21,903 bases of DNA. Origin: a virus. Where the stretch lies: UHGV virus genome UHGV-0149790; one strand, 5' to 3'. The notes under the pieces were generated by a model. It saw only the letters and a program-made list of their open reading frames with translations, did not search any database and was not told the origin of the DNA. Made by a program: the position numbers and the translations under genes. Position 1 is the first letter of the stretch. The number at the start of each line of letters is the position of its first letter. Positions 1 to 21,903 of this stretch are shown piece after piece.

Positions 1-272
1 TCGCTAAGGCGAACGCTTTTTTCACCTCTGGAATAAATCACGGTGCCGATGTGGGTTTTACGCCTGCGGCCGGAAACCGTAGGGGCGATAATTTCTCGCT
101 TAATCGGTTTTTGCGGGGTGATGCCTGGTACAGGGGCCGGACGTGGCGCCGCTACGAACACGGAACGGCTACGGGCGCGCGCACCGGCATTCATGCGCCA
201 GAGAATAACGGGGAGCCAGTTGCAGCCATCATCCGGTTTTACTGGTTTTGGGTAATTTAAATTCGTGGTCAT
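1..272 (-). CDS. hypothetical protein, 3'-truncated by the window edge (next gene after the helicase in the early-right operon)
   Basis: ATG at 272-270 on the minus strand directly preceded by the recurring GAGGAAAGACC motif; frame stays open to position 1 (MTTNLNYPKPVKPDDG...). Absent from the supplied track because it has no stop inside the window. Confidence 0.4.
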   Translation of the reverse strand, partial: MTTNLNYPKPVKPDDGCNWLPVILWRMNAGARARSRSVFVAAPRPAPVPGITPQKPIKREIIAPTVSGRRRKTHIGTVIYSRGEKSVRLS

Positions 273-310
273 TGGTCTTTCCTCAGTTAAATCGCGCTGG
301 TCAGGCGCGG

Positions 311-1699
311 TTAAAATGCATCGGTATTGAATTTCTCTGAGTATTTACGGGGTTGTTTCCGGGGTTTCGCGGCCTCCAGTTGGATACGTGTTTTCTCTTT
401 GCCAACATGCTGATCCATTGACAGAAAGTGTCCGTTTTTAAATTCCTGATAAATAATTGCGCCTGCGGCGCTGAAGCGGCTTTTACCCAGGATAATTTCA
501 GCGACGCCAGCCGCCGGGCTTTCCGGGTTGTAAACCTCATCGCGGTACAGAAACATGATGCTGTCGGCGTCCTGCTCAATGGAACCGGAATCGCGCAGGT
601 CTGACATGACCGGGCGGCGCTGGGCCGCCGGGCGGGAATCCACGGCGCGGGAAAGCTGGCTAAGCGCGAACGTCGGCGTATGCAGGCGCATAGCCATAGT
701 TTTTAGGTTTCGGGATATGTGGGCGATCGCGAGGTCGTTACGCTCTGCCTTCGGTTTTTTTATCAGGCCAAGGTAATCGACAACGATCATCGCCAGATGC
801 GGATACCGGCGCTTATGCGTTTCGGCAACGGCGCGGATTTGCTCAATCGTCAGATCGGTAGCATCAACGATCCAGATATCTCGCCCGTTCATGGTCTCCA
901 TGGCCGCGGTAAAGCGCGCCCAGTCCTCGTCCTGCATATCGAGGGGATTACGCAGGCGTGACACTGACATGTTGCCAGAACCCGCCAGAGAGCGTTCTAC
1001 GATTTGCGCAGCGGCCATTTCCATGCTGAATATCAACGCGCCACCGCCAGCAGCGGTAACACCATCGACAATCTTCAGCGCAAATTCTGTTTTTCCCATG
1101 CCCGGACGCCCGGCGACGACAATCAAATCCTGCAGGTTGATTCCGCCGGTCGCATCGTCCAGTTCCTCGATCCCGGTTTTCAGGTTGCGAGTACCCTCTT
1201 CGCCGTCCATGCGCTTCTGCATGGTTTCCATGTACACCGGCAATAATTCGCTCATGTGTACCGGCTGCACGTCGCCAGTGTCGCCGGTCATGTCCAGCAG
1301 CTGCGCCACGGCAGTTTCGACAATCTGATCGCGCTGCTCCTGATTATTCGCCTGGCGGATACCATCAGCACCATGTTGCAGTAATTCAGCCATACGGCGG
1401 CTGCGCCACGCCTTCACCATTTTCCCGGCGTAACCTTTCAGGTTTGGTACCGTTGCGGGCATACGCGAAATCTCTGATAAATCAGCCAGGCTACTCCCTC
1501 CCAGAGCCTCACTGACAAACAGCATATCGATCAGACCGTTCGTCAACGCCTGTTTTTTGATTTCCGAGAAGGCGCGACGATGAAAAACAATGCTGAATGA
1601 TTCTTCAGGCGTCGATGCGATCACGTCGAAAGCGTCCGGACTTGCTCCACCGTTAAGCAGTCCAGCCAGTACACAAGATTCCAGTTCCTGCGGAGTCAT
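311..1699 (-). CDS. DnaB-family replicative DNA helicase (lambda P / P22 gene 12 position)
   Basis: 462-aa ORF with Walker A GRPGMGKT and DnaB-like RecA-fold motifs (FSMEMAAAQIVERSLAG, IVVDYLGLI, SQLSRAVDSR); its start overlaps the stop of the upstream replication gene at 1696-1699. Confidence 0.9.
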   Translation of the reverse strand: MTPQELESCVLAGLLNGGASPDAFDVIASTPEESFSIVFHRRAFSEIKKQALTNGLIDMLFVSEALGGSSLADLSEISRMPATVPNLKGYAGKMVKAWRSRRMAELLQHGADGIRQANNQEQRDQIVETAVAQLLDMTGDTGDVQPVHMSELLPVYMETMQKRMDGEEGTRNLKTGIEELDDATGGINLQDLIVVAGRPGMGKTEFALKIVDGVTAAGGGALIFSMEMAAAQIVERSLAGSGNMSVSRLRNPLDMQDEDWARFTAAMETMNGRDIWIVDATDLTIEQIRAVAETHKRRYPHLAMIVVDYLGLIKKPKAERNDLAIAHISRNLKTMAMRLHTPTFALSQLSRAVDSRPAAQRRPVMSDLRDSGSIEQDADSIMFLYRDEVYNPESPAAGVAEIILGKSRFSAAGAIIYQEFKNGHFLSMDQHVGKEKTRIQLEAAKPRKQPRKYSEKFNTDAF

Positions 1700-2688
1700 A
1701 GCGATCCCTCACGAGTTTTACGCAATGTTTCAGGCTTCATCAGGTAGTCAAAGCTGGCGCGCCATCCGCCATTTTCACCAAAGTAAAAATCGGAGGCGTC
1801 AGCGCGGAATTTTTCGAAATAGCCCAGAAATGCGCCCGTGGTTTTGTTTTTCATATGGGCGGCCAGACGGGTGATCATCCGGCGGCGGTCGGTGTCGAGT
1901 TCAGCAGCAGGCAGAGCGTCAGCAAAAATTTCGTTGTAGCCGTTCATAACGGCTTCGGGGTCAATATCGGCTTCGGTCACCGCCCATGCTTCAGCGTCAG
2001 CGAGATAACCATCAAAGCGGTTTACCCGGCAGATGTTCGCTGGCTTCGGCAGGCTATCGCCACGGCGGCGCCATGTGGCCAGCACCCAGCGGATAACTAA
2101 CTGCAATTCGTCCAGGGTGTAACCTTCCCGGGTGGTGGTCGGCGTCAGCATCATCACAAACGGTTTCAGGTCACGGCAGCGGGTACCGGTTTGCTCGTTG
2201 TAAAATTCCAGCGCTTTTTGTGCATCAGAAAGAATTAACTCAACGCCTTCCCCCTCTAAGGGGTTAGGGGTATATATATTCTCTGTAGTATTCTCTGTAA
2301 GAAAGTTTGCTGGTTTTCCACTTACTTGTTTGCTGGTTTTCCGCATTCCAGTATGTGGTTTTTCCGCATTCTTGTTTGCGGCTACAAGTGATTGAAATAA
2401 AACATCATTATCAATCTTGTAGAAAAGACGAGCAGGTACACCTTTCTTTTTTTCCAGCAGTACACCAATTGAGCGAAGTTTCTTACGCGCCCCCTCCTGT
2501 TCGTAACGGGAAAGGCCTGTTTCTTCCTCCCATTCTTCCTGGGTTTTATATACCCATCCATCATCGTCGGATCGGTTAGTCCAGTAAGTCATTTGAGACA
2601 GGAACAGTGCAGCCGTCACACCGATATTCAGGCGAATGAAACTACGCTGGAAGGCGATCGGCCTGTCGAGTAATGGCAAAATATTCAT
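1696..2688 (-). CDS. phage replication initiation protein (O-like replisome organiser) with origin iterons inside the coding sequence
   Basis: 330-aa ORF; two-domain layout with a Lys/Thr/Asn-rich linker coinciding with a direct-repeat array at 2305-2383; sits immediately upstream of, and coupled to, the helicase gene. Confidence 0.75.
   Translation of the reverse strand: MNILPLLDRPIAFQRSFIRLNIGVTAALFLSQMTYWTNRSDDDGWVYKTQEEWEEETGLSRYEQEGARKKLRSIGVLLEKKKGVPARLFYKIDNDVLFQSLVAANKNAEKPHTGMRKTSKQVSGKPANFLTENTTENIYTPNPLEGEGVELILSDAQKALEFYNEQTGTRCRDLKPFVMMLTPTTTREGYTLDELQLVIRWVLATWRRRGDSLPKPANICRVNRFDGYLADAEAWAVTEADIDPEAVMNGYNEIFADALPAAELDTDRRRMITRLAAHMKNKTTGAFLGYFEKFRADASDFYFGENGGWRASFDYLMKPETLRKTREGSL
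2266..2430. repeat. ori-like element: four iterons at 23-bp spacing flanked by AT-rich DNA
   Basis: GTTTGCTGGTTTTCC-like repeats starting at 2305, 2328, 2351 and 2374; CTCTGTA x2 at 2281-2299; AT-rich stretch 2391-2430; all inside the O-like gene, as with lambda ori. Confidence 0.55.
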
Positions 2689-2690
2689 AC

Positions 2691-2932: not shown

Positions 2933-3379
2933 TTAAACGCTGGTCAGGCGCTGTGTTTCTCGCATAGCTTGCAATGCTCTGGCGACTTGCTGCGGCCCGT
3001 CTCTGGCGTCGAGTAACAACGCGATAATCGCCGCGGCAAACTCGCGAATGGCCACACAAATTAAATACTGAGTGGACATACCCAAGCGCGCGTAACGTTC
3101 TGCCGGCAGCGCCGCTTCCATCGCTTTGACCAGCGCCAGAGTTTTGGCTCTCGCGGCTTTGGTCTCGCCTCGCAACCAACGAAAAATTTGTTGGCGGTTG
3201 TTGTTGATTGCCCGCCAGTCGGCGTTTCCATCTGCATCTTCGATCTGGTGCAGCTTCAGCGAACCGGTATTACCACCAAGACGAAACCACATGCGGCTTA
3301 TCTCGATAGCAACCAGCTCCTGCCCGCTTTCCGCTGCCCAGTTAAAGATCTCTCGTTTAAGTTCTTCGAGGTATTCCAC
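2933..3379 (-). CDS. CII-position regulatory protein, possibly YdaT-family
   Basis: 148-aa helical ORF directly downstream of the Cro-like gene; GTG start at 3379 with AGGAGA 9 nt upstream. Family assignment is from recalled similarity only. Confidence 0.5.
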   Translation of the reverse strand: MEYLEELKREIFNWAAESGQELVAIEISRMWFRLGGNTGSLKLHQIEDADGNADWRAINNNRQQIFRWLRGETKAARAKTLALVKAMEAALPAERYARLGMSTQYLICVAIREFAAAIIALLLDARDGPQQVARALQAMRETQRLTSV

Positions 3380-3441: not shown

Positions 3442-3636
3442 TTAAGCTGATTTGGCTGGCAGTTGGTAAGCCTTTGGGTCATAAACAAGTTCGCCATCAG
3501 TCATCAGAGACAAACGAGCCGCTTTACCTTCAGGAACCAAACGCCCCCACGCATAGACAGTAGGAGCCTTAACGCCAGCGGCCTCAGCCAGTTTTCTCTT
3601 ACTACCAAAATATTTGATCGCATCAGTTGTTAACAT
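3442..3636 (-). CDS. Cro-like HTH regulator (DicC/YdaS type)
   Basis: 64-aa ORF (YFGSKRKLAEAAGV...LVPEGKAARL...GELVYDPKAY) divergent from the repressor gene; AGGAGG RBS; promoter and operators immediately upstream. Confidence 0.75.
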   Translation of the reverse strand: MLTTDAIKYFGSKRKLAEAAGVKAPTVYAWGRLVPEGKAARLSLMTDGELVYDPKAYQLPAKSA

Positions 3637-3650
3637 GAAACACCCTCCTG

Positions 3651-3716: not shown

Positions 3717-4103
3717 ATGACAATGCCAGGTGAGCGCATCAGAGCGCGTAGAAAAGATCTCAAACTTACTCAGCGCGCTTTAGCGAAGCTGGTTAACGTC
3801 GCGCACGTCACTATCTCCCAGTGGGAGACCGGTGATAGTGAGCCTGGCGGAAAAAACCTTTTCGCTTTAAGTAACGCACTTCAATGCAGCCCTACCTGGA
3901 TACTTTACGGCGATGAAGCCGCCACTCCGGGAACCCCGGTAGACACCCCGCCGCCATTAGATGAACGAGAAACAGAGCTTTTAAAACTCTTTTCGTCACT
4001 CCCAGAATCTGAAAAAGAGCGGCATTTAACGGAACTTCGCGAAAAAGTAGACGGTTTCAATCGTTTATTTGAGGAGTTACTGCAAGCCCGCAAACAAAAA
4101 TAA
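3717..4103 (+). CDS. short HTH-XRE prophage repressor (DicA-like; no peptidase S24 domain)
   Basis: 128 aa; N-terminal HTH (GERIRARRKDLKLTQRALAKL...ISQWETGDSEPGGKNLFALSNALQCSPTWILYGDE) closely resembles recalled DicA; no Ala-Gly/Ser-Lys autocleavage module; divergent from the Cro-like gene. Confidence 0.85.
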   Translation: MTMPGERIRARRKDLKLTQRALAKLVNVAHVTISQWETGDSEPGGKNLFALSNALQCSPTWILYGDEAATPGTPVDTPPPLDERETELLKLFSSLPESEKERHLTELREKVDGFNRLFEELLQARKQK

Positions 4104-4965: not shown

Positions 4966-7164
4966 ATGACCATCTACAACGGCTCATTTGAGCCAAAGAA
5001 ATCGGCGATTAAAGACTGCGGCGCCGTGCAGCTGGCGATCGCCATCGATGCGCCAAACAAAAAAGTGGCCGAAAGCATTATGACCGGCAAACTCTGGGAA
5101 TCATACCCGGCCAATGGTGACAACTATTTCAAACCGAAACTGTGGGAACACGTTGAAGGCCAGCCGCTGCCGACCGTTGGCCAGTTCGATGAGTCATTCG
5201 CCCAGCAGCATACTTTTGACGGTGAAAAATGGGTTTCTACTGCGCAGGATAGCGCTTCCGGAAGTGGTGCAGGTTTACCTGCCGACGATGAAGTGATCGA
5301 CCTGATGACCGTTTCCCCTGATGAACGCTTTGCTGCCGTCCTGCTTTTTAGTACCGCGGCGATTGATGGCCATCTTTATTCTCAGGTTGTGGATTATCTG
5401 GATAATCTGAAAAACCACGATGGGGAATTTGAAGAGGAAGATCGCTTTAACTTTAATGTTCTGTGTGCCCTGCAAAATAACTTCCCGGTTCAAAGCATGC
5501 ATGTGGAAGGTCTGAACAATCTTATTCAGGGTATTTTCTCCCACTTTGAAAACCAGACGCCGGGCAAAGCGGCTATCTCTCAGTTCGTTAAACGCTGGCT
5601 TGAGAATCCGGGCAAGCGCGACGAACTGGCCCCCGGCGTATATAAAAATACCGCTCTCAGCACCAGCACCAGCACCAGCACCAGCACCAGCACCAGCACC
5701 AGCACCAGCACCAGCACCGATGATAAAACACCCGTGGTAATTTCTAAGCGCGGATATAAACACACTTATGCAACGCTGGATCAGGAGATCGCTACCGCCC
5801 TTCTCCCGCTGGCGCCTGATGCGCCGGTACTATCCGGAAACCTTCTGGACGCTAAGAAGATGATTTCCGATGACCGGGAAGATTTTAAACGCTGGTCAGC
5901 ATCGCTGCACACCACGCCGCAGATACTCAAATACGACCGCGCCAGCATCTTCGGCGTGGTACAAAACGTACCGGCGAAAGATACCTACCATTTCCCTGAC
6001 AGCCTGCGCCGCCATATCGATTCATGGCTGGCGGCCAACGGCCGCTTTGAGGAAACCGAGACAGGATCCGTTAAACAACCAGAGGCGACGCAAAATACCG
6101 CCTCAAACGTGGGCGAAAAAGTGGAAGCGCAGCAGCCGGTTGTAACCGACACCCAGGCCAAACAGGCGCGTGAGACGCTCAATGATATGGGTTATGGCGT
6201 ATATGCCTCTGGTGAAGGTGCAGAGCCGGAAGAGAAGTTAAGCGTTAAGGCTGAAAAACTGGCTGATGATTCCGAGCGTTTAGCAAAACAAATCGCTCAC
6301 GCTGAAAGCCTGCCTAACGCTGAGGATGTTGTGCAGGCTGTCGGAAAACCAATCATCGGGGAAGACAATTTAGACCTCTGGAAACGCGTATTTAAAACCG
6401 ACGAAAGGTTTACTAAGGCTTTCACACAGAACGGCGGTGGCACCTCGATCAACGGTACCTACATGACCATGCTTGCCACACGTGAGTTTGGCCCTAAGGG
6501 CATCGGCTGGGGCGTGGATATTGTTGAAGAGCGTTTCGATATTGGCGCGCCGATCACTCGGCAAGTAAAAGGCAAAGACAACAACGCATCGTGGGAGCTG
6601 GTTCTTGATGGGAATGGTAATACCGTCAACGAACAGCACCATGTTGTGACTGTCCGGCTCTGGTACATCCTGAACGGAGTACGAGGTGAGGAAACAGCAT
6701 ACGGCTGTACACCCTACATTTACGGTAGTAAATACGGGATCACCTGCGACGGCGAAGCAGCCAAAAAATCACTGACAGATGCGACCAAAAAAGCGTTATC
6801 CGGCCTCGGATTCAGTGGCGATATCTTTATGGGGCTTTACGACAATCTGGAGTACCGCCAGAAGAACAAGGCCGAGTTTGACCTGAAGAACGCCAGCGAA
6901 TCAGCCGAAGATGCAGCACGGCTCCGCCAGGAGTTTGACGATAAATTAAGCCGCGTTGCTAATACCCTGGCGCATGGCGTGACGGTGAACGAAATCAACG
7001 GTGTGTTTTCCCCTATCGCACGTGAGATCGATGTTCACATTAAAGCCGCCCAGGCCAACGGCGACACGCAGCATGAACGTTATCTGTCTGGCCGGCTCCG
7101 CCGACTCATCTCCATCAAAGATGGGCGCATTAAAGAACTGAATAAAGCCGAGGAGAAAGCATAA
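4966..7164 (+). CDS. large recombination protein: N-terminal region of unknown function, (Ser-Thr)10 linker, C-terminal Rad52-like single-strand annealing domain
   Basis: ATG at 4966 preceded by GAGGAAAGACCA; C-terminal motif GCTPYIYGSKYGITCDGEAAKKSLTDATKKALSGLGFSGDIFMGLYD matches the Rad52/Sak signature (K-x-A-V-T-D-x-x-K-R-A-L-x-x-F-G); 733 aa from this start. Confidence 0.7.
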   Translation: MTIYNGSFEPKKSAIKDCGAVQLAIAIDAPNKKVAESIMTGKLWESYPANGDNYFKPKLWEHVEGQPLPTVGQFDESFAQQHTFDGEKWVSTAQDSASGSGAGLPADDEVIDLMTVSPDERFAAVLLFSTAAIDGHLYSQVVDYLDNLKNHDGEFEEEDRFNFNVLCALQNNFPVQSMHVEGLNNLIQGIFSHFENQTPGKAAISQFVKRWLENPGKRDELAPGVYKNTALSTSTSTSTSTSTSTSTSTSTDDKTPVVISKRGYKHTYATLDQEIATALLPLAPDAPVLSGNLLDAKKMISDDREDFKRWSASLHTTPQILKYDRASIFGVVQNVPAKDTYHFPDSLRRHIDSWLAANGRFEETETGSVKQPEATQNTASNVGEKVEAQQPVVTDTQAKQARETLNDMGYGVYASGEGAEPEEKLSVKAEKLADDSERLAKQIAHAESLPNAEDVVQAVGKPIIGEDNLDLWKRVFKTDERFTKAFTQNGGGTSINGTYMTMLATREFGPKGIGWGVDIVEERFDIGAPITRQVKGKDNNASWELVLDGNGNTVNEQHHVVTVRLWYILNGVRGEETAYGCTPYIYGSKYGITCDGEAAKKSLTDATKKALSGLGFSGDIFMGLYDNLEYRQKNKAEFDLKNASESAEDAARLRQEFDDKLSRVANTLAHGVTVNEINGVFSPIAREIDVHIKAAQANGDTQHERYLSGRLRRLISIKDGRIKELNKAEEKA
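5659..5718. repeat. perfect hexanucleotide tandem repeat (AGCACC)x10 encoding (Ser-Thr)10
   Basis: Ten uninterrupted AGCACC units read directly in the sequence, in frame within the 4966..7164 CDS. Confidence 0.95.
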
Positions 7165-7730
7165 TGACTTCCACCACTGCAATTGCTATCGCAGCCGATA
7201 TGTCAAAACTCCAGGCACTACTGGAAAACGAAGACGGTGCTGGTCTGTCTCCTGAAATGATCGCCGACACAATGGAAGGTCTTGAGTTACAACTCGGCGA
7301 TAAACTGGATGCCGTTTTCGTCCACGTTCGCAATCTGGAAGGCCTGGCAAAAACCTGCGATGAAGAGGCCAAACGCCTTGCCGCCCGCAAAAAATCATTC
7401 GAAGGTAAGATCACGAACCTGAAGAAATATGTTCTCCAGTGTCTACTGGCCGCCGGTCAGGATACGGTTAAAACCGCCAAAAATACCTTTACCGCACGTA
7501 AGGGAGCTATAAACGTCGTGATCGATAATGATGAATTACTGCCGGATGAATTAGTGACAGTTCAGACGTTAGTCACTCCGGACAAGAAAGCCATCAAGGA
7601 AGCGATTGAATCAGCACAGGCAGCGGCGGCCCAGATTACCGCTGACGGCGGAGAGATACCGGAAGAACTGTTAAACCCAGTGCCGGGCGCTCACCTTGAG
7701 ATTGGCGAACGTTCGCTGCAGGTGCGCTGA
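7164..7730 (+). CDS. Gam-like / Gp157-family protein (candidate DNA-end-binding accessory)
   Basis: 188 aa; start overlaps the upstream stop (TAATG); N-terminal coiled-coil plus a C-terminal pattern resembling Mu Gam; family call from recall, moderate confidence. Confidence 0.5.
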   Translation: MTSTTAIAIAADMSKLQALLENEDGAGLSPEMIADTMEGLELQLGDKLDAVFVHVRNLEGLAKTCDEEAKRLAARKKSFEGKITNLKKYVLQCLLAAGQDTVKTAKNTFTARKGAINVVIDNDELLPDELVTVQTLVTPDKKAIKEAIESAQAAAAQITADGGEIPEELLNPVPGAHLEIGERSLQVR

Positions 7731-7966: not shown

Positions 7967-8191
7967 ATGCTACGTTGGCAACCAGGCACACTTTTACTTT
8001 CAGATTTCGATATCAAAATTGGCAGGCTATCAGCCAGCGTTAGAAAGAGGACTCTGACCCAGTCCGATATCCAACGCGCTTGCGATACGGCAGACAACGC
8101 GATAGCCGGCATGCTGAGGAAAGACCATGAGACACGATCACGACATCATCACCAGAGAGGAAATGATCGAACTGACGGGGACCCCACTTAA
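7967..8191 (+). CDS. hypothetical small basic protein
   Basis: 74-aa ORF whose ATG sits in the 3' arm of an 11-bp perfect inverted repeat; overlaps the excisionase-like ORF in another frame; weak support. Confidence 0.3.
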   Translation: MLRWQPGTLLLSDFDIKIGRLSASVRKRTLTQSDIQRACDTADNAIAGMLRKDHETRSRHHHQRGNDRTDGDPT

Positions 8192-8372
8192 ATCGAGGCA
8201 GTGTGAAGCGCTACGTCGGGCCGGTGTCTTTTTCATGGAAAGGGCAGACGGCCATCCTAAAACGACGTGGGGCCATTTCCTGAACCCGATTAAATACCGC
8301 AACCAGCAGGAAGAGACGGTGCGGGAGGAAGAACCAGACTTCGGAGCTATCTTTAATGGCCGGAAAACGTAA
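8127..8372 (+). CDS. excisionase-like DNA-binding protein
   Basis: 81-aa ORF immediately upstream of and overlapping the integrase start; the ITREEMIELTG...ALRRAGVFF segment fits small winged-helix excisionases; positional support. Confidence 0.5.
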   Translation: MRHDHDIITREEMIELTGTPLKSRQCEALRRAGVFFMERADGHPKTTWGHFLNPIKYRNQQEETVREEEPDFGAIFNGRKT

Positions 8373-9433: not shown

Positions 9434-9458
9434 TACAAAAAAACCACCCGTAGGTGGT
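9434..9458 (-). terminator. intrinsic terminator between int and the att core, strongest on the minus strand
   Basis: AACCACC-cgta-GGTGGTT stem (9441-9458) preceded by AAAAAAA (9434-9440), a T7 run after the hairpin on the minus strand. Confidence 0.55.
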
Positions 9459-9492
9459 TTCACGACACTGCTTATTGCTTTGATTATTCTGC

Positions 9493-9548
9493 TTTATCCC
9501 AATGGTACCCGGAGCGGGACTTGAACCCGCACAGCGCGAACGCCGAGG
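9493..9548 (-). other. att core: 56-nt 3'-terminal fragment of tRNA-Leu (anticodon UAA), not an intact tRNA gene
   Basis: Minus strand reads ATTTAAAATCCCTCGGCGTTCGCGCTGTGCGGGTTCAAGTCCCGCTCCGGGTACCA: anticodon loop, long variable arm, T-arm GGTTCAAGTCC, acceptor 3' strand and CCA. The 5' half of the tRNA is absent (sequence diverges at 9549). Confidence 0.75.
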
Positions 9549-13814: not shown

Positions 13815-15425
13815 CTAGTAATCTACGGCGACCATGTGATCGCCATCATTTGGTTGCCAATGTTCCCGCGCCTGTGCGGTCGGAATCCCGACCAATTTAC
13901 CAATGCGCACTGGTGTTGAGCTGATTGCGCCAGAGCCAGAGTCGATAAAGTCATCTGGCTGATTAGTCAGCGCCGGGTTAAAGTCGCGCATCTGGTCATA
14001 CATTGGGCCGTCGAGCACGTCGGTATGCGCCCAGAGGAAGCGCGACGACAGCGGCGCTTCGAATGCATCGAGGATGCGCTTTTGTTTATTGGTCACGCTG
14101 AATTCTTCCCGTACGCCGCAGCCGGTACCCTTTAGTGCCTGAATCAGCAATTTCCCGGCAAAGCTGCCCGGGCCGTTCACCTCGACGCAGACCAGCGGGA
14201 TCTGGTATTTAAGCACCAGCTCTTTAATCTGCATCACCTGACCGCCGGTGATTTTGTCGTTGTCGTCGAATTCCGCCAGTTCGCCCGTAAGCCCCTGGCA
14301 AACATGCCAGTACAGATGCCCGCGTGCGTCGGTGAAAATCAGAGAGAACGCCGAGGCGTCGGCCTTAACTTTGCCGGTGGCCACATCCCACCAGGCAACA
14401 GCACCAACAATTTGCGTCTGGCCAAGCCACATCGAGCAGGAGCGGTTCGCGTACCGGATTTCAGGCTGTACGTTGTATTCGCGTATGCGGTCGGGATCGA
14501 GACGAACCTCGCCAACCGGTTTACTGTGCAGCTGGTACTGGCTGTCCCATTCGTTAATTGTGCGAGTCTCGCGACGGCGCTTTGTCATTTCCTCCGGAGT
14601 GAACCTTTCTGGCCATTCACAATCGGCGTAACAGTCAACCGTGGTGCCGGGAGCCTCGGCAAACTCGATACCGTCATCGTTAAGACGATAATCAACACCT
14701 TCAACGAGCAGTCGCGCGCCAATGTGAATACCGACGAAAACATATTCCGGCCGGAACGGTAACGAGTAACGGCTCGCGGTGGCCTGTTTTTCCTCGATTC
14801 TAAATTCTTTACCGAATAGTTTGATGGTCAGACAGTCGGCGCCCATAGATTCAACCTCATCGTAAAGGCTATCGTGGGTATGCGGCGTGCCGATAAACAG
14901 CTTTCGCCCGCCGGGGACAAGAATGTGTGTCTGTTCACCGAGACGATAACGCAGCTTTTCCCGCGCCTCTGGCGTCTGGATATTGCGGGGTACTTCTACG
15001 TCATCGTTCTGGCATTCATCAGCGCGGGCCGAGGTAACGTTAGAGAGGATCCCCTTTGCGTACATGCTGCCGTTACGCATATCCAGAGAGCCGTTAACCC
15101 ACCACTGTTCAACGGTTCCCTGTCCGTCCGGTAGCATGCCTTTGGTCAGTGGGTGATTGCGTAAAACGTTCTGCGTATCGCGGCTGGTTTTGTACGCGGT
15201 GCCGTCAGCTTCAGACTGGTGAAGAATGCGGTACTGGCGGTTCTGGTAATATCGCCATGCGTTATACACCGCCAGAATGGTAGATTTACCAAAGCCACGA
15301 AAACAGCGAAGCACCGCGAGATCCCCGCGGTGTTCCAACCAGTGGCAGGCTCGATAATGGCAGTCGGGAACCTCCCACCCCATCCGCTCCGCCCATATGA
15401 TGAAAAAGGCGACGAATGAAATCAT
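13815..15425 (-). CDS. terminase large subunit, T7 gp19 type
   Basis: 536 aa; CFRGFGKSTI (cf. T7 AFRGIGKSFI) and TSARADECQNDDVEVPRNIQTPEAREKL (cf. T7 [27 protein letters not shown]); start overlaps the upstream stop (ATGA). Confidence 0.9.
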   Translation of the reverse strand: MISFVAFFIIWAERMGWEVPDCHYRACHWLEHRGDLAVLRCFRGFGKSTILAVYNAWRYYQNRQYRILHQSEADGTAYKTSRDTQNVLRNHPLTKGMLPDGQGTVEQWWVNGSLDMRNGSMYAKGILSNVTSARADECQNDDVEVPRNIQTPEAREKLRYRLGEQTHILVPGGRKLFIGTPHTHDSLYDEVESMGADCLTIKLFGKEFRIEEKQATASRYSLPFRPEYVFVGIHIGARLLVEGVDYRLNDDGIEFAEAPGTTVDCYADCEWPERFTPEEMTKRRRETRTINEWDSQYQLHSKPVGEVRLDPDRIREYNVQPEIRYANRSCSMWLGQTQIVGAVAWWDVATGKVKADASAFSLIFTDARGHLYWHVCQGLTGELAEFDDNDKITGGQVMQIKELVLKYQIPLVCVEVNGPGSFAGKLLIQALKGTGCGVREEFSVTNKQKRILDAFEAPLSSRFLWAHTDVLDGPMYDQMRDFNPALTNQPDDFIDSGSGAISSTPVRIGKLVGIPTAQAREHWQPNDGDHMVAVDY

Positions 15426-15763
15426 TTTTTCCGCTGTTGTATGCGTTCGATAACTTCCTGTGCTGCCCGTTCAGCCGCAGATACCTGTTGCCCCAGGCGG
15501 AATGCTTCATCGTCCGGATCCTCGCCGGGTTTAGGCGTCCCCCCGCGCGTATGCATGCCAATCAGCGAATGGACTTTTACCAGCAGCGTCAGCGATGCGG
15601 CCGCGTTCTTCTTATGCCAGTACCGATCACCGCGTTCCTGTTTAGTGTGCTTTGTGATTTCCTTCCCTGCCCCCGGCCAGTTGTCCGGATCGGCTTCTTC
15701 CAGAACTACATCGGTGAGCTTATCGCTAAGAGCAGTAAGGCGAGTTTTGTAATCTGAATGCAT
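15422..15763 (-). CDS. putative terminase small subunit (positional inference)
   Basis: 113-aa ORF translationally coupled to the large terminase gene; no sequence signature recognised. Confidence 0.4.
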   Translation of the reverse strand: MHSDYKTRLTALSDKLTDVVLEEADPDNWPGAGKEITKHTKQERGDRYWHKKNAAASLTLLVKVHSLIGMHTRGGTPKPGEDPDDEAFRLGQQVSAAERAAQEVIERIQQRKK

Positions 15764-15845: not shown

Positions 15846-16364
15846 ATGAAGATATTAATTCCATTGTTGCTAATCTTTCACTTTGCAGCATTCGCATCAA
15901 CCGATTTAGTTGATGACTCTAAATATATCGTTCCTATATCCGGACCAGGAATACAGATTACCAATCCATATACCGACTATACGGTCATTAACGGTATCGA
16001 CACTGGTAAAAAAATTGAGATCCATGTATCGGTATTACACTTGCGAACCTATAAAGAAAACGCAGATTTTAGTGAAACTAATACTCACTATGTGGAAGGA
16101 AGTAAAACCATATCTAGTTACAATGCCAATGTTTACACAGACGATTTTATAAAATTTACATCAGAAGACGCTAAAAATTCAACATTGAAAAATTTAAGGG
16201 ATTTGTATTGTGCACCAGATGGATTTTACCCAGTGTCATCTCAAGAGCGGCTATTCTACGAAACCCGAAAAGAAAATAAAAAAATAATGATCAATTACTA
16301 CAGTGATTCAGGGAAAACCCTCATGTTTGGGTTTGGGGTTTCCCCCGAATCATGTAAGTCGTAA
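15846..16364 (+). CDS. secreted or periplasmic protein of unknown function encoded by an AT-rich moron, opposite in orientation to the late operon
   Basis: 172 aa; AAGGAG RBS 9 nt upstream; signal peptide MKILIPLLLIFHFAAFAS; markedly AT-rich, wedged between two minus-strand late genes. Confidence 0.7.
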   Translation: MKILIPLLLIFHFAAFASTDLVDDSKYIVPISGPGIQITNPYTDYTVINGIDTGKKIEIHVSVLHLRTYKENADFSETNTHYVEGSKTISSYNANVYTDDFIKFTSEDAKNSTLKNLRDLYCAPDGFYPVSSQERLFYETRKENKKIMINYYSDSGKTLMFGFGVSPESCKS

Positions 16365-16367: not shown

Positions 16368-19262
16368 CTATCGCATTCCCGGATCAACCTGATTAAGCAG
16401 TGGGGCAATCCAGAACAGGTTATTACCCGGCAGTAACGTACGCACACTATGCAAAACACGATCGCCGGCATCGCCGTTAAGCACGCCGGCGGTCACATCA
16501 GTAACGGTATCCAGCAGGCCGAAGGTTGGCCCTAGCGCAGAACCGATAAAGCCACGGCTGGCGTAACGGGACTGCGTACCGGTACCGAGCAATGGCCCGA
16601 GCCCTATCATCCCACCGGATGCCTTTTCCGCCATGTTGTTGTATTCCATCAGCGGGCCGAGAATACCAGAGCGGTCGATGCCCTCGATTACCATTTTCTG
16701 CGGAGTCAAATCAACCTCCCGGCCGTTGGCCGCCTGCTTAAGCGCATAGGTCAGTGAACCAAGGCCAATCTGGAAGGCGGTACCGTAATAGAACTGCGCG
16801 GTACCTTCCTGCAGGCCGCCGAGCGTCGCGCGGTTATAGGATGCCGTAGCAAAAGACTTAAACTGGAATACGGTTTTTCCCAACGGGGTGCTGGCCCACA
16901 ACGGCGTGTCACCGATACCCGGCGTGATAACGGTATTGTTTACATCCTTGAGCACAGCAGATTGCAGAAGTCCAGCGGCGTACTGGTCATCCCATTTTTC
17001 GAAATTGCCGATATGCCAGCCCTGAATAACTTCACCGTGCCTCTGAAATTCTCGCTGGATGCGTTCGGCCATATTCTCGTTGATGCCGAGTTTTGCCAGG
17101 CGCTTCGCAGGGAACGCGCCGGACAGAATACCGTCGGACGTGATCATGCCATTCACCGATTTGTTCATATCGTCAAAGTGGCCCATCATGGTCAACTTGC
17201 CGAACACATCAGTAATACGTTCCATGCCAGCTTCTGCAGCTGTCGTACGAGAAGAGCTATCGACCAGATCCCCCATAGTACGCGCGCGGGTATGCAGTAT
17301 GGTTTCCAGCCCAACGGCCATTTTCTTCTGCTCCGCCCGGCTGGCGAGATAAGCCGGAGAGCGGGTGATCAGTGCGCCATATCCACGCATGGTATTGCTG
17401 AAGCCGTTAACCATCATGCCGCGCGCCAGATCCGGGATAGCGGATACCGTCATGCCGCCGAGTTTCGTTACAAAGTTGGCGCTACGCAGGAAAGCACCAG
17501 CGCGAACGAAAAATGATGATGGGTCATCCGGCATACCGTAGGTACCGACGAGGCGATCGCGAAGCGCCAGAATATCGCGCAGGTCGGCTTCGCGCGCCTT
17601 CGCCAGCTTTTCCTGTTCTGCTGGGCGTAAACGCATCAGCGCGTCGTATTCGTCCTGGATGGCGGCGAGCTGCGAATCCAGCGACTTGTTGCCGAACGTA
17701 CGGGTTAATTCGATCTCCGCTGAGGCTTCGCGGATATGACGCTGCAGGACGTAATTTGCATCACTCTCCAGATAATCTTTCATCAGGCGATCGGGGACGC
17801 TCAACGTTCGCGATTTGGTGCTACCTGGTGCTTTCACCATGAAGACGTTGGCGAACTCCTGCGGAATTTTGGCCCCGACGATACGGTTAATCGTGGTATC
17901 GGCGGCGATTTCGGCATCTTCGCGGGACATGGTTTTTTCACCACGTGACCACCAGTCAACCAGCATATTGCGGAATTTATCGCGCTCGCTAACAATTTTC
18001 CCTACCTTGTACACGCGAGGGAAATAGCTGGTCTGCCCCATCGCTTTCAGTTCGGCATCCGGCGGAAGCAAACCCAGCTCCTGCTGTGCCGTCTTCACGC
18101 GGTTAATGACTGTGCGCATTGCCTGCGCTGCTTCCTGCACTTTCGCATTAACGTGCACGTCGCCGTTACGCAGCGCCTCGCCGACCTGTTCACGGAAAGC
18201 CGTATGACCCAGATCGCCGCCTTCAGCTTTATACTGAGTGTATGCCTGCTTATTCGCAGTAACGACGGCCGCCTCTTCGCGGCGCCAACCACGTACGCGC
18301 GTCTCGGCAGCTACCGGAGTTTCGATACCGCGCAGGTTTCCTTCCAGCGTGAAGTTATTCTCCGCTAGCTCCAGCGCTGTCCGGCGCGCTTCTTTTGACG
18401 GGGATTCCATCAGTCGGGTGATCGGCGTGAGATAGCTACCGGCTTTTTTAGCCAGCTTGCCAAGCGGGCCGCCAGACACCGGCGTGAGGTCTTCCAGTGT
18501 AGCTTCGCGAATACGCATGGCGCCGACGCTGCCACCGTTCGGTAAAGTATCCGCCAGGGCGTCTGCTGCGTTGTTAATCGTTGGCGAGACGTTCATATTA
18601 TCGAGCGCCTCTGCCACTTCACGCGTGGCCGCGTTTCTTACCGCTGGAGTGATCATCGCGCCAGCAGTGGCGAATACACCGCTTAGAAGTGCGCCGGCTG
18701 TGATGTGTGCTGCGCTCTCCCTGGCGGTTCTGGTGTACTGCTCGTTATTGAGCGCTACCTCGCTAAGTGCGGTACCGGCGGCGCCAATAGCAACCTGAGA
18801 ACCAATACGCGCAGCCAGGCTTCCCTGCGCACCGGGAATAAACATTGATGCTACTGTGATAGGGTCAAGCATGCCAGACGCAATATTCGCTAAAGTTCCG
18901 CCCCATCCTGCCTCAGCAGTAACGCGCCTATCTTCATTTTCTTCATCAATCTGGTTTTTAATCCAGGCGGTTTCCTCTGGGGATTTTGAATCAGCGAAGG
19001 CAGATCCCCATTGTTCGTACCCCTTTAGTTCGTTTTTATCAGAATAAGGGTTATACCCCTCCGCTGTCTCGAACTGTTTAGCCGGGCGGAACACTCCGGC
19101 CAGCAGGTTATTCTGACGAAAAGCGGCATCCCATACAGACGGTTGCTGTTGCAGCGGCTCCGGGTTAGTTCCTTCAGGCAGAGAGACATCAAAACCAGTT
19201 GGCGCCTGAAGAGCATTATCCATTACGCTCGGTGGAACATCAGATTGCGGATAGATCGGCAT
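16368..19262 (-). CDS. large virion structural protein (internal core / ejection-protein-like)
   Basis: 964 aa, Gly/Ala-rich, coupled to the upstream virion protein gene (1-nt overlap); located where T7/SP6-like phages encode internal virion proteins; no specific motif recognised. Confidence 0.55.
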   Translation of the reverse strand: MPIYPQSDVPPSVMDNALQAPTGFDVSLPEGTNPEPLQQQPSVWDAAFRQNNLLAGVFRPAKQFETAEGYNPYSDKNELKGYEQWGSAFADSKSPEETAWIKNQIDEENEDRRVTAEAGWGGTLANIASGMLDPITVASMFIPGAQGSLAARIGSQVAIGAAGTALSEVALNNEQYTRTARESAAHITAGALLSGVFATAGAMITPAVRNAATREVAEALDNMNVSPTINNAADALADTLPNGGSVGAMRIREATLEDLTPVSGGPLGKLAKKAGSYLTPITRLMESPSKEARRTALELAENNFTLEGNLRGIETPVAAETRVRGWRREEAAVVTANKQAYTQYKAEGGDLGHTAFREQVGEALRNGDVHVNAKVQEAAQAMRTVINRVKTAQQELGLLPPDAELKAMGQTSYFPRVYKVGKIVSERDKFRNMLVDWWSRGEKTMSREDAEIAADTTINRIVGAKIPQEFANVFMVKAPGSTKSRTLSVPDRLMKDYLESDANYVLQRHIREASAEIELTRTFGNKSLDSQLAAIQDEYDALMRLRPAEQEKLAKAREADLRDILALRDRLVGTYGMPDDPSSFFVRAGAFLRSANFVTKLGGMTVSAIPDLARGMMVNGFSNTMRGYGALITRSPAYLASRAEQKKMAVGLETILHTRARTMGDLVDSSSRTTAAEAGMERITDVFGKLTMMGHFDDMNKSVNGMITSDGILSGAFPAKRLAKLGINENMAERIQREFQRHGEVIQGWHIGNFEKWDDQYAAGLLQSAVLKDVNNTVITPGIGDTPLWASTPLGKTVFQFKSFATASYNRATLGGLQEGTAQFYYGTAFQIGLGSLTYALKQAANGREVDLTPQKMVIEGIDRSGILGPLMEYNNMAEKASGGMIGLGPLLGTGTQSRYASRGFIGSALGPTFGLLDTVTDVTAGVLNGDAGDRVLHSVRTLLPGNNLFWIAPLLNQVDPGMR

Positions 19263-21859
19263 TATTCATTGCTCCATGAAAAGTAGTTTTTAACCCGGTT
19301 CATACGGTCATCGTGCAAACGCTGATATTGCTCATCGAGCGCTCGGTGTTTTTCCTTAAAGCCTCGAATATCTTTCCCGCGTGATAATTCCTCTTCGCCT
19401 TGCTGTTCCCGCTCCTGCTGCATTTTTTTATACGGTTCCCAGTCTTCCAGCGACGGTTTCCAGCGCATCGGACGCCTGAATTTATCGTAATATGGCTGTA
19501 CGCTCTCGTTACCATCTTTATCTTTCATGCGAACCATAATGGCGTAGTCACCGTTACGCGTGGTTAAAACGTCAGGGGTAATTTCCAGTTCACCACCGAT
19601 TTGGGATTCAGGTGTATTTGATGTAATAACGGGCGCTGAACCTGATGTAATACCCAGTTGGGTCGGGCTGGTTTCAAATTTTTCTCCACGTTCGCCATAG
19701 GTCAGACGCTCTTTCTCTTCTTTCCACTGCGCAGCCTGCCAACCAGAAGGCCCGTAGTTATAAAGTGCTTCAGGCGCGTATTTCATAAACTGGGCGCTGC
19801 CGTTCACATCGCTAAGACTCCAGGTACGCGCGATCTGGGTATTGGTCATCTTTTTGGCAACATCGGCATTACCACCCGAGTTGCGATAATTGATGTCATA
19901 AAGCGACTGGTAGTCGTTACGGAAATTGACGGCGTTAAGATTCTGGTCATCTGCTGCAGGACCGCCAAAGCTGTACCACGGTTTCATGCTACTGACTGCG
20001 GAATCCATCGCGCTGGCACGCTCTTTTTTGTATTCCTTCGTGCTCTGCGTAGAAGACAATTGTGATTTAAGGGCATCAGTCTGGTTATAGGTAACGTTCT
20101 GCGCCTGCTTCACTGCTTCGTCTGACGCCATGCCGGAATCGGTAAGTTGTTTAACGGTCAGGTAAAAGCTTTGCATGTCCTTTGGCATATCGCCCACAGA
20201 GGCAGGATCTGTTTCGTACAGCGCGTTAAATAATGTCGAGCCCTGCTTAACCACGCCGGGGCTGCTGGAACGGGCGATCGCATTCAGTTGCGATGTAACT
20301 TGCGATGGGATAATGCCGGTCTGGTTAACCTGCTGCACGATGGCGTCGTGAGTGGTGGCGTCGTTAATGCGGAAGTTAAGCGCCGATGGCGTATTGTCCG
20401 CCGCCCTCTGCATAGATTTATTGCTCGGGTCGAGTTTCTCGCCGGAGAGCAGCGCATCGTTAAAGCGGGCGGAGTCGCGCTGCGCCTGAATATTGGCGTT
20501 GCTCTTCTGCACCAGCGCGCTAAGTTTGCCGTGTGCATCAAGTTTTAGCGCAAAATCGGGATCGTTTGCCTGCGGCTTCACCTTCGCCAGTTCGGCCTGC
20601 TGTTCTGCCGGGGTGGCGTACTGAATAGCCTGGAAGGTTCTGGCGTTATCAATCGCGATATCCAGCTGCTTGACCGCTGTTTGCCCCTGCTCACCATACG
20701 CAAACAAAATGGTGGAGGCGTTCGGCATAGCATCCGGCACCTCGCCGTTATACAGCTGCGCCATTGTATTATTGAGAATCGGGTCAATCTGCTGGCGCAG
20801 CGCCGTACGCTGCTGCCGGATCTGCGCTTCGGCGATATTGTCGATTTTGTTTACTGCTACCGGGTCGAGACCGGTTTTATTTTTGTTGTAACGGGACAAC
20901 CAACCGCGCGTTTCTGCGGGCAGCTGCTTAACGAAATCCGCCATCGAGATTTCGCCTTTGCGCGGGTCGCCCACTTTGGCGATCAGTTTATCGACGTTAC
21001 CCATCCCCCAGTTATACGCGGCCCCGGCCAGTGGTTCTGACTGGTATTTTTTACTGAGCTGCCCGGCATAATCACGCGCCAGCTGCGCATGCTGCACAGG
21101 ATCGTCCGGGTTGTATTCCACGCCACGTTTAGCCGCCAGTTCTTTCCCTGTGTCCGGCATCAACTGAAATTCACCCTGCGCGCCAGCGGGCGATGTAACA
21201 AGACTACCATCCGCATTGCGGTGCTTACCACCGGACTCCACCAGGCCAACGGCGCGCATATCGAGTTCGCCGGTGCTGCTGTTAATCAACGTAAAATCGC
21301 CATTCAGCCAGCCAGTGGGATTGGTTACCGCGTAGTTCTGCGCGCGCTGCTCCAGCGCTTTTTGGTTCGCTTCTGATACCGCCGCGTCGATGCGCTCCTG
21401 CGGCCAGCCACGCGCCTGGCCATACATCTCGATCGAGTGTTTACGGGCGCTACGTATCAGCCCTGCCTGCATCGGATTATCGTATGCGCTGGCCTCTTGT
21501 TCGACGGAAGTGGTCACCGTCGCATTAAGCTGCTGCCGCTGGGCCTCATCCGTCTGTGCACGCTCGAAACCGCTGTAGGTACTTGTCCGGCGTACCTGCC
21601 CTGCTTTCCACTGCGCATCAAAATAGTTTAACTGGTTGGGCGGTACGCGCTTCCGCGCTTCCTCGTAATCGCCAGCGTCGGCCTTATCCATATCGGTTAC
21701 CACACCGGACGATTTAAAGCCCTGACGAGTGACCGTGGCGCCCGTCTCCGGGTTTTCCCAGCGGTCATTAGATTTAGCTTCCAGATCAGTCAGAATCGCC
21801 TGCGTGGCTGCCACATCGGCTTTATCCTGCTCATGCTGTACTTGTTCTGGATCATGCAC
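19262..21859 (-). CDS. internal virion protein with lytic transglycosylase (SLT) domain
   Basis: 865 aa; SLT signature ESGGKHRNADG...GAQGEFQLMPDTG...AYNWGMGNV about 200-300 aa from the N-terminus; probable GTG start at 21859, two codons after an in-frame TGA. Confidence 0.75.
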   Translation of the reverse strand: MHDPEQVQHEQDKADVAATQAILTDLEAKSNDRWENPETGATVTRQGFKSSGVVTDMDKADAGDYEEARKRVPPNQLNYFDAQWKAGQVRRTSTYSGFERAQTDEAQRQQLNATVTTSVEQEASAYDNPMQAGLIRSARKHSIEMYGQARGWPQERIDAAVSEANQKALEQRAQNYAVTNPTGWLNGDFTLINSSTGELDMRAVGLVESGGKHRNADGSLVTSPAGAQGEFQLMPDTGKELAAKRGVEYNPDDPVQHAQLARDYAGQLSKKYQSEPLAGAAYNWGMGNVDKLIAKVGDPRKGEISMADFVKQLPAETRGWLSRYNKNKTGLDPVAVNKIDNIAEAQIRQQRTALRQQIDPILNNTMAQLYNGEVPDAMPNASTILFAYGEQGQTAVKQLDIAIDNARTFQAIQYATPAEQQAELAKVKPQANDPDFALKLDAHGKLSALVQKSNANIQAQRDSARFNDALLSGEKLDPSNKSMQRAADNTPSALNFRINDATTHDAIVQQVNQTGIIPSQVTSQLNAIARSSSPGVVKQGSTLFNALYETDPASVGDMPKDMQSFYLTVKQLTDSGMASDEAVKQAQNVTYNQTDALKSQLSSTQSTKEYKKERASAMDSAVSSMKPWYSFGGPAADDQNLNAVNFRNDYQSLYDINYRNSGGNADVAKKMTNTQIARTWSLSDVNGSAQFMKYAPEALYNYGPSGWQAAQWKEEKERLTYGERGEKFETSPTQLGITSGSAPVITSNTPESQIGGELEITPDVLTTRNGDYAIMVRMKDKDGNESVQPYYDKFRRPMRWKPSLEDWEPYKKMQQEREQQGEEELSRGKDIRGFKEKHRALDEQYQRLHDDRMNRVKNYFSWSNE

Positions 21860-21903
21860 TCTTCAATTAGCTTGTGCGCGTCGTTACGCTGAGTCTGCTC
21901 AAT

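Follow-up and report, generated by a model that had tools for sequence, protein, structure and literature searches.

The viral genome UHGV-0149790 is available as a stretch of 21,903 nucleotides (termed the window in the following), which corresponds to one entire SPAdes metagenome contig (ENA ERZ1743278 NODE_75, 21,903 bp) with about 10.7x coverage. Its gene map, which was drawn from the listing of open reading frames (ORFs) in combination with Pfam, PHROG, and NCBIfam scans, begins with an early arm encoding a replicative helicase, an O-like initiator, a divergent repressor/Cro pair, an exonuclease, an excisionase, and an integrase, continues through a 124-bp attachment core (attP) into a lysis cassette and a tailspike gene, and closes with the genes for the large terminase (TerL), a putative small terminase (terS), and two internal virion (ejection) proteins. 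With a probability of roughly 0.85, the window is understood as 62% of the genome of a temperate short-tailed Klebsiella phage, which was captured in its excised or replicating form across attP and belongs to the lineage of the phages YeP4, Piluca, and APEC. The phage is a temperate podovirus under lambdoid-type control that works like epsilon15 or P22, and it lies outside the Autographiviridae because the defining RNA polymerase of that family is absent. Its lambdoid character is only partial, since the scans turned up no Q unit and the lysis genes occupy another position. The occurrence of phage-21-type lysis, integration in leuZ, O plus DnaB, and a T7-family TerL in one molecule represents genuine phage mosaicism and not a T7 phage turned temperate.

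The attachment site and the complete prophage

The reference for the window is a prophage on the 126-kb contig ERZ27234202 k141_4819, from which two loci were fetched and merged for comparison. Window positions 1-5682, 5694-9558, and 9435-21849 are 100% identical to both arms of this one prophage. The complete phage genome, as defined by the 124-bp direct repeat at the prophage ends, comprises 35,411 bp, of which the window makes up about 62%. Both window arms also occur in one prophage of a closed E. coli chromosome, beside yecA. Because the two arms are the ends of one prophage, the junction between int, the tRNA fragment, and the lysis genes is attP and not a chimera. The sole break in identity to the left arm of k141_4819 (window 5683-5693) falls within a perfect (CAGCAC)x10 hexanucleotide array, which is located at 5658-5718 inside the RecE-like exonuclease gene.

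The attP core (9435..9558, minus strand) is identical at both prophage ends in k141_4819. Positions 9503-9558 represent the 3' 56 nt of the leuZ tRNA-Leu(UAA), and positions 9435-9502 correspond to the sequence downstream of the tRNA with its terminator, the stem-loop of which was located at 9461-9440 by a promoter/terminator scan. The glyW-cysT-leuZ cluster is intact at attL of the lysogen, where the last 56 nt of the tRNA-Leu(taa) come from the core, and attR retains the tRNA fragment only, with no intact tRNA. No intact tRNA was found in the window by ARAGORN and Rfam either, as would be expected of an attP with only the fragment. Phage mEp390 has its annotated attP at the site of this core. 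The genes responsible for recombination adjoin the core, namely an excisionase of the DUF4224 family (8127..8372, plus strand; phrog_1266, E 1.7e-33; PF13986 on record for relatives) and a tyrosine integrase (8356..9372, plus strand; PF00589, PF22022). Judging from their family membership, recombination by Int and Xis would take place between the 124-bp core and the 3' end of leuZ and thereby restore the tRNA. The xis/int pair with a tRNA-Leu att core that an earlier note on this DNA had read from the sequence is therefore confirmed, and the integrated form at tRNA-Leu, which the same note proposed to search for in bacterial genomes, was found both at leuZ in k141_4819 and beside yecA in the E. 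coli chromosome. The existence of an attP-form contig hints that the prophage is actively excising in the natural sample.

At the other extremity of the window, the last 54 nt (21850-21903) have no match in about 100 related loci or in IMG/VR. They are probably an assembly-graph tip, since 54 equals k-1 for SPAdes k=55, or possibly a variant junction present in the sample. This tip closes the frame of the SLT-domain protein 38 codons short of its homologues of 903/904 aa.

Virion genes, packaging, and late transcription

TerL (13815..15425, minus strand) passes the curated T7 large-terminase model of NCBIfam (termin_lrg_T7, 285.6 bits versus a cutoff of 150) as well as PF22530, and its PDB matches are restricted to T7 gp19 (4bij, 8dgc), which bears out the T7 gp19 signatures pointed out earlier. 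In a pairwise matrix, the identity of this TerL and its close relatives to the TerL proteins of T7, SP6, and phiKMV amounts to 21-34% and covers only an ATPase core of about 200 aa, whereas these three are mutually 33-39% identical over their full length. Because the T7-like enzymes share full-length identity and the window TerL shares only the ATPase core, the protein is placed by sequence as an outgroup clade of the T7 family. No similarity of TerL to the terminases of epsilon15, BPP-1, and P22 was found (P22 TerL, E 0.24). A P22-like affiliation of the phage was rejected, given that none of its virion proteins has a tblastn match (E <= 1e-3) to P22.

The gene that overlaps the start of TerL (15422..15763, minus strand, 113 aa; phrog_9277) is regarded by its position as the putative small terminase. 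Its product is 64% identical to an ORF upstream of the YeP4 TerL, in 34 of the 71 prophage loci of the lineage described below a homologue precedes TerL, and no match to T7 gp18 was detectable. Next to it, a T7 gp16-type ejection protein of 964 aa without the N-terminal SLT domain is encoded at 16368..19262 (minus strand; phrog_342, E 4.6e-191). This protein aligns to positions 199-1226 of the phrog_342 profile, a PHROG that also includes T7 gp16, and it displays 24% identity to SP6 gp37 (E 1e-7) and a weak BLAST similarity to phiKMV gp37. The second ejection protein contains an SLT domain (ORF 19262..21859, homologous sequence to 21849, minus strand; PF01464, E 1e-9; phrog_1044, E 0), and its 5' end was lost at the contig end, the homologues being 903-904 aa long. 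It is 31% identical to BPP-1 Bbp11 and 25% identical to epsilon15 gp15, and it does not belong to the T7 gp15 type, as Bbp11 also matches phrog_1044 while T7 gp15 is assigned to phrog_1339. PDB sequence searches with the two internal virion proteins gave no matches. The T7-family terminase would fill the capsid, possibly by a headful mechanism, and the SLT and gp16-type proteins would be ejected to build a trans-envelope channel for the DNA.

The tailspike of 839 aa (11278..13797, minus strand) starts with a T7 gp17 N-terminal domain (PF03906, E 2e-11). The gp17-like adaptor ascribed to it from the sequence is thus real, and the best relative of its N-terminal anchor region of about 300 aa is epsilon15 gp20 (36% identity, E 1e-40). 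The PDB match of the anchor (8ck0/8ck1) represents the marine Cobetia podovirus Carin-1. The comparison with T7, SP6, and phiKMV that had been suggested as a check for TerL, the tailspike, and the SLT-domain protein revealed the TerL similarity over about 200 aa and no BLAST-level match for the spike anchor; the similarity to SP6 gp37 belongs to the 964-aa protein, which is not one of these three.

The missing 13.6 kb of the genome were taken from identical or near-identical prophages. Their first part contains Nin-like genes (an MT-A70 methylase, HNH proteins, a NinB-like DUF1367 protein, and a Ref-type nuclease) and small helix-turn-helix (HTH) proteins; the second part harbors, in order, a PF12236 portal, a Bbp19-family protein, a scaffold, and a PF19821 capsid; and the last part encodes, in order, a 187-aa adaptor, a 663-aa nozzle, a GNAT acetyltransferase, and a 162-aa gp14-like protein. 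The portal scores 403.8 bits in PF12236, a family which includes the epsilon15 and BPP-1 portals with higher scores, and its best PHROG is phrog_332, that of BPP-1 Bbp21 and not that of T7. The nozzle falls in PF25675 (32.3 bits versus a cutoff of 27), and the gp14-like protein reaches 19.5 bits with PF24072, under the cutoff of 27. With their epsilon15 and BPP-1 counterparts, the portal, adaptor, and nozzle share 26-35% identity, and they have no BLAST match in T7, SP6, and phiKMV; conversely, no BLAST-level similarity to the T7 capsid, gp11, gp12, gp14, gp15, or portal was present in the prophage. The capsid families differ throughout, being PF19821 in this phage, PF21703 in T7, and PF20911 in epsilon15 and BPP-1, and T7 gp10A gives a weak, sub-threshold match to PF19821.

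The temperate podoviruses epsilon15 (Uetakevirus) and BPP-1 (Rauchvirus) have the synteny of this phage, with the shared order of portal, small protein, protease/scaffold, capsid, adaptor, nozzle, GNAT, gp14-like protein, SLT protein, large ejection protein(s), spike, lysis genes, attP, and int. From the portal through attP and int, the gene order is that of epsilon15, GNAT included, except for the terminase genes, which are inserted between the ejection proteins and the tailspike. The terminases of epsilon15 and BPP-1 are of another type, located upstream of the portal, and have no similarity to the window TerL, and the two phages also differ from it in their ejection proteins, which are not of the gp16 type, and in the capsid (PF20911, the GP7 family, versus PF19821). 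The SP6-like gene order proposed in the earlier note holds for the stretch of ejection proteins, terS/TerL, and tailspike, but the whole order from portal to int is that of epsilon15 and BPP-1. To the question raised there of whether the terminase and virion proteins might group with other known temperate podovirus families, the answer is divided: portal, adaptor, nozzle, and spike anchor do group with epsilon15 and BPP-1, but TerL is of the T7 family.

With regard to transcription and replication, tblastn of the T7 and phiKMV RNA polymerases against the full 35.4-kb prophage returned no match (best E 0.22), and the same result was obtained for the T7 DNA polymerase (gp5) and the gp4 primase-helicase (E >= 0.31). 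None of the three enzymes was found in the 71 related loci, and the Pfam family of single-subunit RNA polymerases is not on record for any of the called genes. Between DnaB and the portal, no member of a Q family is on record or was detected by scans of candidate proteins, which recovered small HTH proteins only. A 98-aa HTH protein (L012, 16129-16425) and a phrog_536 regulator are candidate late activators. Inspection of the flanking region, which had been recommended, hence yielded a PF12236 portal and a PF25675 nozzle, and neither a single-subunit RNA polymerase nor a lambdoid Q. The lysis genes are the last of the late operon and adjoin attP as in epsilon15, instead of following a Q/PR' unit. 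Since a phage polymerase is absent, the host RNA polymerase would transcribe a long late operon from a promoter upstream of the portal, an operon which would close with the pinholin, SAR endolysin, and spanins and stop at the tRNA terminator in attP. In the promoter scan, promoter-like sites were no more numerous than in shuffled sequence, and none of them is proposed as the late promoter.

Relatives of the phage and alternative readings

The nearest isolated phages by TerL are the Yersinia phages YeP4-6 (80% identity), Acinetobacter TPWB-05 (47%), Alcaligenes Piluca (46%), and E. coli vB_EcoM_APEC (45%), and the similarity to YeP4, Piluca, and APEC extends over the full length of 531-552 aa. 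YeP4, YeP5, and YeP6 (MK733262-4; about 35 kb), which were induced from Y. enterocolitica O:9 lysogens and identified as podoviruses by electron microscopy (PMC6548840), possess the closest sequenced virion module, with identities of 80% for TerL, 64% for terS, 81% for the portal, 84% for the capsid, 70% for the adaptor, 77% for the nozzle, 65% for GNAT, 78% for the gp14-like protein, and 60% for the endolysin. YeP4 and the phage of the window have a common order of ejection proteins, terS, TerL, spike, lysis genes, and int. They differ in the early region, which in YeP4 is of the BPP-1/APSE type (DNA polymerase, primase, helicase, and LexA-like repressor) and here consists of O plus DnaB with DicA/Cro (PMC8579659), and in the ejection proteins, YeP4 having three of the epsilon15 gp15-17 type without a match to the two in the window. 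In the GenBank record of YeP4 (MK733262, locus L001), the TerL annotation is confined to the C-terminal portion (33878-35017), and the full ORF of 536 codons is intact at 33407-35017, with 80% identity to the window TerL.

Piluca (MZ326864) and APEC (MT664721) are more distant (TerL 45-46%, portal 41-46%, capsid 40-48%) and have the general layout of the window phage. Portal, scaffold, capsid, adaptor, nozzle, and GNAT, as well as the succession of ejection proteins, terS, TerL, spike, lysis genes, and int, are features that the window phage has in common with the YeP4/Piluca/APEC lineage. Piluca has been described in print as a temperate podophage whose tail proteins resemble those of T7 and epsilon15 and whose packaging is headful according to PhageTerm (PMC9022569). 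Its early genes are lambda-like (CI/Cro, Exo/Bet, integrase, and a DnaB-like protein), and APEC carries O plus DnaB (PMC9022569, PMC8229158); the record of APEC lists no integrase. Unlike the phage of the window, both have epsilon15-type ejection proteins, lack a P21-type holin, and come from other hosts. The two ejection proteins of the window found no match in YeP4, APEC, or Piluca.

A megablast of the window against phages matched the early arm only, and the virion arm was without a DNA-level isolate. The early region of BUCT708/709 (vB_SmeS, OM816834/5) has 80-91% DNA identity to window 1-8130, and their endolysin and holin are 77% and 53% identical to those of the window phage, while their virion module differs, with terS-TerL-portal at the front and no match to the window TerL. 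The comparison shows, at the level of sequence, an exchange of the lambdoid arm between podovirus chassis; the arm is mobile, as BUCT708/709 share it and do not share the virion module. In the BUCT708 record (OM816834, locus L022), the early region occupies 28885-37325 and the note of one gene carries an HMPREF0484 locus tag. The "Stenotrophomonas" host label of BUCT708 may be doubtful.

A lineage scan with one genome per species recovered 71 prophage loci with a TerL of this lineage (41-88% identity) in Enterobacterales, Pseudomonas, Acinetobacter, and Betaproteobacteria. The architecture of nozzle, GNAT, gp14-like protein, ejection proteins, terS, TerL, and spike is kept in most of them: a nozzle, GNAT, or gp14-like gene lies upstream of TerL in 39-47 of 71 loci, a gp17-type spike anchor downstream in 57, and an epsilon15 gp17-type ejection protein upstream in 54. 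The gp16-type ejection protein of the window occurs near TerL in only 10 of 71 (9 Enterobacterales and 1 Pseudomonas lundensis). Because of this disproportion of 10 versus 54 loci, the T7-type ejection protein looks, from its distribution in these sequences, like a later module swap within the temperate lineage; in the Klebsiella/Raoultella/Enterobacter subgroup, it replaces the epsilon15 gp15-17-type set.

In the index of public assemblies, the exact TerL protein occurs in 318 blocks. Many of these represent chromosomes of 5.2-6.0 Mb in which the prophage is flanked by the tRNA cluster and yecA, and the protein is rare in E. coli (4 of 5,426 complete genomes). The mosaic is therefore real but ordinary, a common prophage type with sequenced relatives, and the YeP4/Piluca/APEC lineage is unclassified and already sequenced. 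It merits a phylogenetic description and probably the status of a taxon. A match to a T7-type terminase, tail fibre domain, or internal virion protein does not imply a lytic lifestyle, and both marker-based lifestyle calls and the reuse of capsule depolymerases should allow for a temperate family that is common in Klebsiella.

The lineage couples an epsilon15/BPP-1 chassis with a T7-family packaging enzyme, which bears on the proposed temperate origin of the Autographiviridae. Temperate T7-like phages are well established (PMC10134795, PMC9145550), and T7-like can no longer be equated with strictly lytic: Agrobacterium Pasto, Pelagibacter HTVC019P, Pseudomonas LUZ100, and a P. putida KT2440 prophage combine T7-related virion genes with an integrase, often at tRNA-Leu. 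However, these temperate Autographiviridae retain T7-type replication genes along with the single-subunit RNA polymerase, and they use a MarR-type switch; none of these features is present in the phage of the window. Since an epsilon15-like chassis coexists here with a T7-family terminase, a capsid family matched by gp10A (PF19821 being the only one besides T7's own that gp10A weakly matches), and, in one subgroup, a gp16-type protein, the lineage might be conceived as an RNA-polymerase-less temperate sister group of the Autographiviridae, a tentative idea that we consider rather doubtful. If it were true, the lineage would serve as an extant model for the temperate stock that gave rise to the T7-likes through the gain of their own polymerases, and genes could pass through it between virulent and temperate podoviruses.

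A different proposition, that a true T7/SP6-supergroup phage had its early region replaced by a lambdoid lysogeny and replication backbone, is improbable, in spite of several likenesses. The phage shares with T7, SP6, and phiKMV the TerL family (both the curated T7 model and PF22530), the gp16-type ejection protein in T7 gp16's PHROG, the gp17-type anchor PF03906, a PF12236 portal, and a nozzle that reaches PF25675, and its capsid family is weakly matched by T7 gp10A. It further resembles SP6 in terminase genes late in the module, with the tailspike after TerL in an SP6-like order behind the ejection proteins, and phiKMV in a pinholin/SAR endolysin cassette at the genome end (endolysins 29% identical). 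The phage of the window, however, has no RNA polymerase, T7 DNA polymerase, or gp4, is temperate, and has divergent operons, with genes on both strands. Its TerL similarity is limited to about 200 aa at 21-34%, versus 33-39% over the full length among T7-likes; the closer relatives of its portal, adaptor, nozzle, and spike anchor are in epsilon15 and BPP-1, whose portals also belong to PF12236 and score above that of the window phage; and ejection proteins of the epsilon15 gp17 type predominate in the lineage (54/71, against 10/71 for the gp16 type). Of the T7/SP6-type morphogenesis module that the earlier note had put forward, the TerL family, the gp16-type protein, and the spike anchor domain hence stand, and the portal, adaptor, and nozzle belong nearer to epsilon15 and BPP-1. 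Its suggestion of an unusual temperate member of the T7 supergroup is not upheld, considering the absence of RNA polymerase, gp5, and gp4, the outgroup position of TerL, and the 318 assembly blocks with exactly this protein.

It is very unlikely that the window derives from a defective or domesticated prophage remnant, or from a satellite that uses the heads of a helper, although the window is without head genes, the frame of the SLT protein is shut 38 codons early at the contig end, and insertion sequences (IS) occur in some copies. The missing 13.6 kb are intact in the identical prophage from the portal through the gp14-like gene, the truncation of the SLT gene coincides with the contig tip, every long ORF is open, the attP-form contig suggests active excision, and YeP4-6 are inducible and Piluca is plaque-forming (PMC6548840, PMC9022569). 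The IS in question are an ISEc20 in the E. coli copy L002 (40084-41280) and an rve-family transposase adjoining the tailspike in L007 (13860-15010), a genome of 6.0 Mb, and they point to ongoing decay of the prophage in some hosts.

Scarcely tenable is an assembly chimera, in which an unrelated lambdoid arm and podovirus arm were artificially fused at a common tRNA-Leu fragment, a possibility that the earlier note had allowed for. It is true that the junction is a 124-bp repeat exceeding the assembler k-mer, that the source is a metagenome with only about 10.7x coverage, and that the final 54 nt are an unmatched tip. On the 126-kb contig, however, both arms delimit a single prophage with 100% identity, and the closed E. 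coli chromosome likewise has them within one prophage. The junction is exactly as predicted from Int-mediated excision, and lysis genes adjoin int in the YeP4 and Piluca genomes as well.

The interpretation as an excised temperate podovirus of the YeP4/Piluca/APEC lineage nevertheless has several points to its disadvantage. The designation of an epsilon15-like chassis is approximate, as the capsid family PF19821 is neither that of epsilon15 and BPP-1 nor that of T7. No late regulator was found, and the role of the host polymerase in transcription is deduced from the lack of a phage enzyme. The terS label comes from position and is putative. The packaging mode is extrapolated from Piluca, the TerL of which is 46% identical, and may hold by analogy. 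The attP junction sits on a 124-bp repeat in a short-read assembly and could reflect a wrong repeat resolution of an integrated prophage, which is conceivable because the att core is longer than the assembler k-mer. Finally, the inducibility of the Klebsiella prophage is presumed from the relatives YeP4-6 and Piluca.

Early genes, lysis cassette, tailspike, and morons

The genes are not all on one strand, but form divergent operons around the cI/cro pair, in addition to a moron on the opposite strand. The minus strand carries the rightward early operon (Cro, YdaT, O, and DnaB) and the plus strand the leftward operon from the repressor to Int. At the left end, the 5' part of a 222-aa early gene (1..272, minus strand; phrog_4183) is cut by the contig end, window position 1 corresponding to position 11699 of the related locus L013, within a called gene at 11428-12096. 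It is followed by the replicative DnaB-type helicase (311..1699, minus strand; PF03796, E 1.6e-71; PF00772) and the O-like replication initiator (1696..2688, minus strand; phrog_428, phrog_9773, and phrog_345, "replication initiation O-like"), the E. coli homologue of which bears the RefSeq name "RepO". The layout of O initiator plus DnaB is that of P22 gene 18 plus gene 12, and the DNA would be replicated in P22 style by the O-type initiator and the phage-encoded DnaB, according to their family membership. The YdaT/cII-like regulator (2933..3379, minus strand) matches phrog_163, "CII-like transcriptional activator" (E 4e-39), with PF06254 on record for the identical gene in relatives, and the Cro-like repressor of the DicC/P22 Cro family (3442..3636, minus strand) matches PF14549 P22_Cro with 54.4 bits (cutoff 30.2). 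The DicA-type repressor of 128 aa (3717..4103, plus strand; NF007257, 185.8 bits versus a cutoff of 101; PF01381) is without an S24 peptidase domain. The DicA/Cro/YdaT switch would, by the families of its members, govern the divergent early operons. Downstream on the plus strand are a RecE/YdfE-like exonuclease (~4966..7164; phrog_2489 exonuclease, E 0; a weak exoVIII match in NCBIfam) and a Gp157-family protein (7164..7730; PF05565, E 8e-35; phrog_253).

The DicA/DicC-type immunity switch and the O-like initiator with DnaB had both been recognized correctly from the ORFs. As for the lambdoid backbone as a whole, the divergent repressor/Cro with its cII-like gene, O and DnaB downstream of cro, int/xis adjoining attP, and the lysis families are present as claimed, but no Q was found and the lysis cassette lies beside attP. 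A motif combining a ribosome-binding site with a start, GAGGAAAGACCAATG, recurs in near-identical copies at 266-284, 2909-2927, 4383-4407, 4527-4552, and 4954-4972. Three of the copies coincide with starts of early genes, on both strands, and two (4383-4552) are situated in an apparently non-coding stretch between the repressor and a 107-aa gene, beside three copies of TGACAGCCGGGAAAGACCG.

The lysis cassette follows attP on the minus strand. Its spanin pair (9697..10171; phrog_2536, phrog_5672) consists of Rz (9812-10171) and the lipoprotein Rz1 (9697-9936), whose translation displays the lipobox LLLCSC and which overlaps the end of Rz and extends past it, that is, it is not embedded in Rz. 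The SAR-type endolysin of 178 aa (10168..10704; PF00959, E 1e-19) has a T4-lysozyme fold, and an Ala/Gly-rich N-terminal segment and an E33-x8-D42-x5-S48 motif can be read from its sequence. The holin (10688..10918; PF04971, E 1.8e-30) is a phage 21 S-type class II holin of the pinholin type with an MRMK dual-start motif. The SAR function of the endolysin and the membrane behaviour of the pinholin/SAR pair would follow from these features. The phage-21-type pinholin/SAR-endolysin/Rz cassette described beforehand is hence substantiated in all its families. An ORF of 89 aa lies between the tailspike gene and the holin gene on the minus strand.

The C-terminal part of the tailspike matches PDB 9m4c/9m4d, "Depolymerase, capsule KN1-specific" (E 7e-94), and 30 of 32 matching phage records are Klebsiella phages. 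From this resemblance to Klebsiella depolymerases, the host is predicted to be Klebsiella, and the spike would dock by its gp17/epsilon15 gp20-type N-terminal domain and degrade the Klebsiella capsule. The GC content falls to 0.41-0.44 over the catalytic part (11000-13300), as compared with about 0.55 in the neighbouring terminase, and identity to close relatives breaks at ~13292-13344. The GC drop together with the identity break marks the catalytic part as a recently swapped receptor-binding cassette.

The opposite-strand moron of 172 aa (15846..16364, plus strand) has a low GC content that dips to 0.43 and matches phrog_8033 only; neither it nor the small ORFs matched Pfam, PADLOC, or NCBIfam. 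It is a candidate lysogenic-conversion or exclusion gene. Its site between the gp16-type gene and terS is a variable slot, in which relatives hold unrelated genes of 100-144 aa. Outside the window, a further slot between scaffold and capsid harbors anti-defence morons in some relatives, either a protein of the Acb2/Tad1-hairpin family or a Tad2-like protein together with a gp49_66 protein (L012, 19859-20119; L014, 19943-20835; the same slot in L015 and L017).

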